A stretch of DNA of 63,722 nucleotides, filler included. It is 14 parts of 14 records of this genome, joined end to end, with 100 filler letters (N's around TTAATTAATTAA, not from the genome) between each part and the next. Parts side by side here need not be neighbours in the genome. Positions count along the whole stretch, not along the records: positions 1 to 4,556 come from SRR15195285_8194; 13 more parts are not named here. One strand, 5' to 3'. The position numbers were made by a program, and so were the translations under genes. The notes beneath the pieces are model-generated. The model made no database searches. It was not told where the DNA came from and saw only the letters and a list, made by a program, of their open reading frames with translations. Positions within the stretch are counted from its first letter, which is position 1; every line of letters begins with the position of its first letter. Below are positions 3,001-4,008 of this stretch, piece after piece.

Positions 3001-4008
3001 GCCGAGCAGCCGCACGACTGAAGCAGCCGCGAGGAGGAACATGATCGGGCATTCGATCAGGAACTGAAACTGGTGGCTCCAGGGCTGCAGCTTGTCCGCG
3101 TCGTTGCTCATCAGGTTGCTGATCTTGCCGGTCGAGTAGCTTGCCTTCGCACCGGGCGATAGGACCAGGGACTTCTTGTATAACGCTCGGATCACTGCGG
3201 AGCGCAGGCGGTACTCCTGCGTGAAGAGCGTGTAGTTGTACCTGCTCCGACGAACAAGTGTGTTGCTTAGCAACAGTCACAGCAGTCCAGTTTCCCAAAC
3301 AAATTATTGCACACTGAACAAACGCATTCGCCGGTGTAGGTACTGAACGTTACCGAGCGTGCCGACCATCGAGCTCACGAACATCCCTAGCGCGTAGAGC
3401 GCGAGCGACTGGAGGGTCTGTGTGTCGTAGCCGCCACCGCCGCCACCGCCGCCATCACCACCGCCGTCCGCGTCTGAGCCGCTGTGCTTCTGCTCGATGA
3501 TCAGCAGAACTTGCTGCATGAGAAGCGGGCGGACAATGAACGTCAGGTCCGCCGTGAGCTTCAGGCAGAACCCGAGGATCCAGGTGCTCTGCTGGAAGCG
3601 CATGCATGCGCGCATGAGGTCCGGTGCCTCGCCCACGGCAGTGGCGCGCGACTGCTCCTGCGACCAGCATTCATCGAACGGCTCGGAGATACTAGCGACC
3701 TTGTCCTTCGGGTGAAGGTGCCAGATGTCGCTCATCTGCAGCGAGACGCGCGAGCCGAGGCGCATCATCGGGCCCATCCAGTTGAACCAGAACCATGTCC
3801 ACGCGTTGGTATAATCCTCGAACATCGGCCACCGGCGAGCCGACGACGGGCAGTCCGGTGCGTGCCGAGCGTTCCACTCGCGCGCACCTTGACGCGTCTG
3901 GATGGCAAGCAGCTCGCCAGGTGATGGATTGCCGCCGGTTGTTGCGGCGCCGTCGCTCGGGGCCTCGAGCAGCGGCTGTGCGAGGCCATCCCCCGCGGTG
4001 CGTGGCAT
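73..4008 (-). CDS. ABCC/MRP-family ABC transporter, spliced, 3' end runs off the window
   Basis: TMD1 (2530-3600), Walker A GAVGAGKS, and signature LSGGQ restored across intron 1495-1601. TMD2 has [14 protein letters not shown] and [17 protein letters not shown] introns at 3242-3343, 1495-1601, 1312-1399 and 595-708, plus one starting at 72. Confidence 0.95.
3241..3340 (-). mobile_element. Introner-like element family A, copy 1 (ABCC intron 3242-3343)
   Basis: Ends CCTGCTCCG...CGGTGTAGG form an imperfect TIR, flanked by TA on both sides. Internal AGCAACAGTCACAGCAGTCCA is shared with the other copies. Confidence 0.8.

Follow-up and report, generated by a model that had tools for sequence, protein, structure and literature searches.

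A short TA-flanked inverted-repeat element as the probable source of introns in eukaryotic genes

Three homologous introns found in unrelated genes very probably originate from a single family of introner, designated family A, a non-coding, MITE-like transposon of ~100 nt with terminal inverted repeats (TIRs) that inserts at TA, duplicates this dinucleotide and displays a preference for G-TA-C. Introners represent the best-supported route of intron gain in eukaryotic genes. The members of family A are homologous and are recognized by their termini and flanks; their junctions are in frame, they are absent from the orthologues and one copy lies in the reverse orientation.

The window, i.e., the whole stretch of 63,722 nucleotides that was analysed, consists of 14 contigs of 3.3–7.3 kb each, separated by N spacers; its GC content is ~50–67% and its genes are eukaryotic and intron-interrupted. 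Contig 1 is present in seawater/marine metagenome runs. The best named relatives of the GH3 gene are those of the acanthoecid choanoflagellates Stephanoeca diplocostata, Diaphanoeca grandis and Savillea parva (56–59% identity), the next being found in a Picozoa single-cell assembly (53% identity), while an ESM Atlas search with the GH3 exon was uninformative on taxonomy. Judging from these matches, the host is an uncultured marine protist, perhaps one akin to the choanoflagellates.

The genes hosting the three introns of the window belong to the Pfam families ABC_membrane, Glyco_hydro_3 and Sulfatase. All three introns are on the minus strand, have GT..AG boundaries and are 102 (ABCC), 118 (GH3) and 108 (sulfatase) nt long. 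The elements that they contain and their flanks are as follows.

3241–3340, minus strand: family-A copy 1, 100 nt, in the ABCC-type transporter gene (intron 3242–3343)
3239–3240, no strand: acceptor-side TA flank of copy 1, kept in the mRNA within GTAC; read directly
3341–3342, no strand: donor-side TA flank of copy 1, whose T forms with base 3343 the GT donor
3266–3290, minus strand: conserved inner block of copy 1, in transcript sense ...GGACTGCTGTGACTGTTGCTAAG...; from alignments
29806–29921, minus strand: family-A copy 2, 116 nt, in the GH3 glycosidase gene (intron 29807–29924)
29804–29805 and 29922–29923: TA flanks of copy 2
57819–57924, minus strand: family-A copy 3, 106 nt, in the sulfatase gene (intron 57820–57927)
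57817–57818 and 57925–57926: flanks of copy 3, the former being TA and the latter, on the donor side, TG in the transcript (CA on the plus strand)

In copy 1, the G of GTAC located outside the acceptor-side TA is base 3238 on the plus strand, and the donor base 3343 is a C on the plus strand and a G in the transcript. The inner block of this copy, a putative branch-site module, contains CTAAG/TGAC motifs located 26–36 nt upstream of the AG.

The claim, made in an earlier note on this DNA, that three introns situated in unrelated genes on different contigs are homologous and have common ends and a common internal block is borne out by the coordinates, the alignment and leave-one-out profiles. 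The introns align over their full length with a mean column identity of 69% and share, on the plus strand, the ends CCTGCTCCG...GG(A/T)GTAGG as well as an AGCARCAGTCA block. The nhmmer profiles built by leaving one copy out retrieved the ABCC copy with E = 5e-21 and the sulfatase copy with E = 6.6e-15, while the GH3 copy, which is the most diverged of the window, was recovered over its right 60% only and, because its E value was just 0.0035, must be regarded as a diverged member. Direct BLAST at E ≤ 1e-4 linked no pair of window copies, which are joined via metagenome copies, and searching the window with the family profile yielded no fourth copy. An exact GGAGCAGGTA at 9031–9040 was discarded as a chance match, its surroundings having no similarity to the family.

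In each of the three window copies, adding one TA to the element and shifting it by one base gives the intron. The sequence fits the splice scheme of the earlier note, in which the donor consists of the host G and the T of TA, the acceptor is located one base inside the TIR and the last G of the element restores the exon. Indeed, the spliced frames stay open across all junctions (the dot marking the junction), giving ...GNVQ·YNYTLF in ABC_membrane, ...AQPL·YMQRGAPIYQ in Glyco_hydro_3 and ...PDIFK·YLHDAGYY in Sulfatase, and all three junctions are of phase 2, i.e., xx·G TAC, a Tyr codon, as had been stated. The possibility that this phase-2 Tyr codon is a property of the element was considered and rejected in light of codon usage and of the phases 1 and 0 found at two further loci (L003 and L001, respectively, see below). 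The window junctions fall in this codon because codon usage puts most GTAC in the phase xxG TAC, as is the case for 37 of the 54 coding GTAC sites in 18.3 kb of coding sequence.

The family-A consensus is 100 nt long, begins with CCT(A/G)CTCCG and ends with CGGAGCAGG. The inverted ends (CCTGCTCCG...CGGAGCAGG) extend, imperfectly, over ~24 nt, the left end being the reverse complement of the right one at 21 of the first 24 consensus positions, and at both ends of the element a CTAA(G/T/A) motif is present ~22–26 nt from the tip, on the strand ending in CAG·G. With its terminal inverted repeats, its small size and its lack of coding capacity, family A has the traits of a MITE.

Additional copies were sought in metagenome contigs by means of a pattern in which the flanking bases were left unspecified but the exact right tip and the block were required. 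Five loci were found (L001–L005), four of which are new, whereas L005 is again the ABCC locus, in this case of a 96%-identical strain in which the intron is present. Together with the three window copies this amounts to eight DNA copies at seven loci, or ten loci when the protein-inferred ones described below are included; the elements are 99–136 nt long among the eight DNA copies and 100–116 nt in the window. Perfect CCTGCTCC tips are displayed by L005, where they are 9 nt long, and by L001. Copies thus occur in unrelated genes, namely those for the ABC transporter, the GH3 glycosidase and the sulfatase, plus four other loci. In L002 (phase 2) and L003 (phase 1) the element is flanked by long open frames and has the sense orientation, and in L001 it lies in the opposite orientation, in phase 0, within a GH3-type gene; the coding status of these three loci is read from the open frames alone, and a Pfam search with the exons flanking the three copies returned no family. 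The L004 element has a 22-nt partial repeat of its left tip. Furthermore, a protein profile derived from the commonest open frame of the element identified three more ORF clusters containing element-derived peptides (P0285, P0286 and P0287), the last of which comes from a EukProt entry labelled Picozoa (single-cell assembly). The family pattern gave 0 matches in prokaryote genome contigs and 0 in viral contigs, and Rfam produced no match on the element in L001 and L005.

The flanks of the DNA copies can be summarized as follows.

Acceptor-side flank: TA in 8/8 DNA copies
Donor-side flank: TA in 6/8 DNA copies and TG in 2/8, hence TA on both sides in 6/8
Outer bases: G...C at 6/7 loci, T...A in L001

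Accordingly, the earlier expectation that each window copy reads G-TA...TA-C holds for the ABCC and GH3 copies and fails for that of the sulfatase gene, whose donor side is G-TG; likewise, the further copies anticipated with G-TA...TA flanks do exist (four DNA loci and three protein-inferred ones), save that TG replaces TA on the donor side of 2/8 DNA copies. A third case of TG is apparently provided by P0286, as deduced from protein. Two alleles of the sulfatase locus, P0135 and P0136, translate at the junction as K-Y and Q-V-P, which fits TA and indicates that the TG of the window sulfatase copy is a later change. At the protein level, the orthologues keep a single TA-containing Tyr codon at the site. 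Taken together, the flanks favour a 2-bp duplication of TA, even if, TA being invariant, it could instead belong to the repeat.

A closely related reading, which we regard as improbable, is that the same kind of element duplicates the 4-bp palindrome GTAC, in which case the element itself would read C...G, with one base less at either end, and family A would have to be assigned not to a TA-specific superfamily but to one that makes 4-bp duplications. This reading is in keeping with the 4-nt duplications of published dinoflagellate introners (PMC9860276) and with the G...C bases that lie outside TA at 6/7 DNA loci, where GTAC/GTAC and TA/TA are indistinguishable; moreover, a C follows the acceptor-side TA at 6/7 loci, compared to 54 of 122 (44%) coding GTA sites. 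What tips the balance is L001, the sole DNA copy able to discriminate between the two, with six extra bases next to one tip as a complication (see below): its T...A outer flanks agree with a TA duplication of 2 bp but not with a GTAC one of 4 bp, which would there read TTAC/GTAA with 2/4 bases mismatched; on the protein side, the base following TA is not C in P0285 and P0286, where the end of the element is followed by Ser and Lys, respectively. Given L001 and these two clusters, only TA is constant, and the excess of C hints at a symmetric G-TA-C preference. GTAC is a preferred, not an obligatory target, so that the claim of insertion at GTAC survives as a preference seen at 6/7 loci and not as a rule. 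The window contains 213 GTAC against 137 expected, and this abundance is neither a trivial explanation nor limiting.

As to the origin of the introns, the ORFs of relatives having 70–90% identity lack the intron at 3/3 window sites and keep either the Tyr or the exact junction sequence, in agreement with the predicted existence of intron-less relatives having the expected junction. These empty sites are known at the protein level. At the GH3 site P0002 (86% identity) runs contiguously through 'RPLYTDKDAPIY'; at the ABCC site so do P0133 (70%), with 'GNVQYNYVLF', and P0134 (58%), with 'GNVQNNYVLF'; at the sulfatase site the contiguous sequences are P0140 (90%), with 'DIFKYLHDA', and P0137 (79%), with 'DLFKALHEAGYYINWFGK', and P0139 and P0147 also run through this site as ...FK(Y/A)L.... 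Since P0002, P0133 and P0140 read into other introns, they appear to be frames of unspliced DNA, so that the corresponding relatives would be devoid of the family-A intron, and the absence of the intron from relatives at 70–90% identity points to recent, lineage-specific gains. The earlier proposal that a TA-targeting MITE has created introns in this genome is upheld by this absence from orthologues and by the identity of each intron with the element plus TA. The other introns into which these relatives run are located where the window gene is uninterrupted, namely following QFQFLI (ABCC gene) and YLHDA (sulfatase gene); their different positions suggest a rapid turnover of intron positions in this group.

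The junctions find additional correspondence in the choanoflagellate transcriptome proteins P0004–P0006, which read PLY/KY without indels at the GH3 junction, and in L001, whose splicing from GT to CAG·G would yield MCSYNAV·NGV, matching the 'MCSYNAVNGVP' of the xylosidase PDB 7vc7. The contigs of three RNA runs and one DNA run covering positions 1–4556 contain no splice joints, and the sole RNA-library contig over the ABCC intron (X16 record 6, 3114–3353) is unspliced. On the other hand, another RNA-library contig (record 1, 157–786) is colinear across the gap at ~595–693 between two ABCC ORFs, a gap that is taken to be a second intron; because the RNA contigs are colinear with the DNA even over this presumed intron, these libraries cannot decide on splicing either way. 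The predicted junctions are credited on the basis of their fit to homologues, and it is from this fit that we infer splicing in vivo.

The mechanism that we propose would begin with the insertion of the element at a TA, preferably within G-TA-C, and with the duplication of this TA. Should the element land behind a G in a transcribed gene, the host G and the T of the first TA would constitute a GT donor. Each inverted end, read outward, would offer a CTAA-type branch motif followed by the terminal CAG·G; the AG acceptor would lie one base inside the element, whose last G would substitute for the host G that has been removed, and the mRNA would recover exactly the original G-TA-N. As the same acceptor module is present at both ends, insertion in either orientation could make an intron. 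After insertion, selection for splicing would keep the acceptor half, while the donor-side inverted repeat would be left to decay and intron position +3 would shift repeatedly from A to G. Transposition would presumably take place in trans, through a TA-specific (Tc1/mariner/pogo-like) transposase; a Pfam search of 8 stretches, out of the window's 16 ORFs of at least 330 aa, revealed no transposase.

The distribution of changes along the copies is what this scheme would lead one to expect. Among the seven loci, pairwise identity amounts to 78% for the right half of the element against 65% for the left, the requirement of the exact right tip and block in the scan pattern inflating right-half conservation for L001–L005 but not for the window copies; at the extreme ends it is 100% over the last 9 nt and 70% over the first 9. 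The ABCC intron and its L005 counterpart differ at 6/50 positions in the left half and at 0/50 in the right half. The A-to-G change at intron position +3 is seen at 3/10 loci, namely in two DNA copies and, as deduced from protein, in P0286; since ordinary introns seen here start with GTG, this change may improve the donor.

An RNA route, on which the introns would have been propagated through reverse splicing plus reverse transcription and the inverted ends would be nothing but RNA structure, is very unlikely. The sense orientation of 6/7 DNA loci within genes would suit such a route, as would the strong terminal hairpin that is predicted for the least decayed copies, yet this hairpin is found in just 2/6 folded copies (z -4.5 and -5.5) and is missing from the three window copies and from L002 (z -1.3, +0.1, +0.3 and -0.5), all of which still reside in open genes. 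Its loss in 4/6 folded copies means that at the RNA level the inverted repeat is dispensable; it behaves as a DNA feature, not as an RNA feature. The TA flanks on both sides and the antisense copy of L001, which still works as a predicted intron, also speak against an RNA intermediate. Even less credit, to the point of being extremely unlikely, is given to the view that these are ordinary old introns with shared splice signals, or that the element landed in pre-existing introns. An ordinary intron of L001 (300–460, GTGCGT...CCAG, without inverted ends) contains CTGCTGTGACTTCTGCT, a 16-nt stretch matching the conserved block at 14/16 positions, so that this block may in part represent a signal common to the introns of the host. 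Nevertheless, the homology of the family-A introns is full-length, with the leave-one-out E values of the ABCC and sulfatase copies given above, their boundaries coincide with the tips of the element, and the orthologues at 70–90% identity have no intron at any of the three sites.

Some peculiarities were observed at individual sites. In L001 (1–135) six extra bases, CGTTTA, are found between the G-TA donor and the tip of the element, and their sequence is that of the six bases just past the other tip (TA + AACG), inverted. At 4135–4150 of the window, the DNA run X2 has GTACCT inserted behind 4135, generating G-TA-CCT·GTAGG-TG..., which in sequence looks like two family-A-like tips lacking the middle and would represent a remnant or an excision footprint; L005 does not contain these six GTACCT bases.

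The window also contains repeats other than family A. The ABCC intron that starts with GTGAAAAAACGG, at the beginning of contig 1 (window 1–75), has bin depths of 209.7, 56 and 66.7, compared to ~2–6 elsewhere, and is apparently a second, high-copy introner-like family. It matches a 36-residue insertion found in P0136 between two Glu codons (~57950/57951), which is lacking in the window, the sulfatase exon of P0136 being otherwise 100% identical; as far as these sequences tell, this insertion is an intron presence/absence polymorphism between strains. The palindrome GGGCATAAGGCCTTATGCCC occurs at three contig ends (4509–4535, 34119–34145 and 42685–42711), and in an RNA-library run the bin at the first of these (4409–4556) has a depth as high as 1156. 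The assembly breaks at this repeat, which is very abundant. A 135-nt repeat unrelated to family A is present twice on one contig (10199–10333 and 12559–12692; 89.6% identity). Finally, positions 20220–22703 hold an intron-less ORF of 827 residues in which an RNase H1 N-terminal domain and a PIF1-like helicase are fused; it may belong to a mobile element or have come from a virus.

A more far-reaching version of the transposon reading, possible but rather doubtful in our opinion, would have family A be a Stowaway-like MITE that is moved by a mariner-type transposase, carries a full 3′ splice-site cassette (branch motif plus CAG·G) in each of its two inverted ends, has been recently active and is present also in the Picozoa assembly (P0287). 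On this view every insertion behind a G at a TA, whichever its direction, would immediately give a scar-free intron. If true, the occurrence in Picozoa would imply a transfer between distant protist lineages. To our knowledge, Stowaway elements have not been described as intron-makers. According to PMC1925063, these plant MITEs are mobilised by mariner-like transposases, have TA as their target and possess the TIR consensus CTCCCTCCRT. Family A resembles them in being a non-autonomous TIR element of small size that apparently targets TA and could fold into a hairpin. Its CCTGCTCCGR has in common with the Stowaway consensus a CTCC plus a purine; the similarity extends over ~6–8 of 10 bases and is a resemblance only.

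The kind of introner and its splice logic are already published (PMC9860276; bioRxiv 10.1101/2020.10.14.339549); the former in particular describes introners which bring the 3′ site with them and obtain the 5′ site from the duplication. In the introners of Symbiodinium (family 1) and Polarella (class 4/5) a 4-nt duplication (GHNN) provides both donor bases (PMC9860276; 10.1101/2020.10.14.339549). With these introners family A has in common that splicing, predicted in its case, leaves the length of the mRNA unchanged; unlike theirs, its presumed duplication is of 2 nt, and the donor G must therefore come from a host base outside the duplication and be replaced by the last G of the element. The introners of Aureococcus anophagefferens and those of Polarella class 6/8/10 give rise to introns in either orientation and are accompanied by 8-nt duplications (10.1101/2020.10.14.339549). 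Symmetric ends, which would allow splicing in both orientations, are found also in family A, and the reverse copy of L001 fits this, whereas the presumed 2-nt instead of 8-nt duplication and the reverse orientation of just 1/7 loci, with splicing that is predicted, set it apart.

A similar system is that of the Acanthoeca sp. MAG, whose introners are said by Gozashti et al. 2022 (PMC9860276) to have TIRs but no TSDs and are illustrated by a 109-nt intron. In both cases a marine protist, TIRs and a similar length (109 nt vs. 102–118 nt) are involved, and the GH3 gene hosting family A is closest, among named proteins, to those of the acanthoecids. In contrast with the 'no TSDs' of that description, family A has TA at both ends and one locus that supports a TA duplication; according to the Methods of the same paper, its test is unable to call a duplication that does not vary from intron to intron. 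Thus, comparing the two by description only, family A may be one of the Acanthoeca sp. MAG families (family 4 or other). No TA-duplicating introner was found in the introner main texts, titles and abstracts covered, though supplements (e.g., Dataset S2, PMC12130899) may list one; what is new is possibly the TA duplication with a donor G from outside and, possibly, the host. More generally, introner families with 'no TSD', in which the duplication never varies, may be TA-duplicating elements, which would connect such families with a known transposase superfamily. With respect to all these systems, in family A the whole introner logic, i.e., a donor made of TA and a host G, mirrored acceptor modules and unequal decay of the two halves, is readable from few copies, and the gain is one of detail and host range, not of kind.
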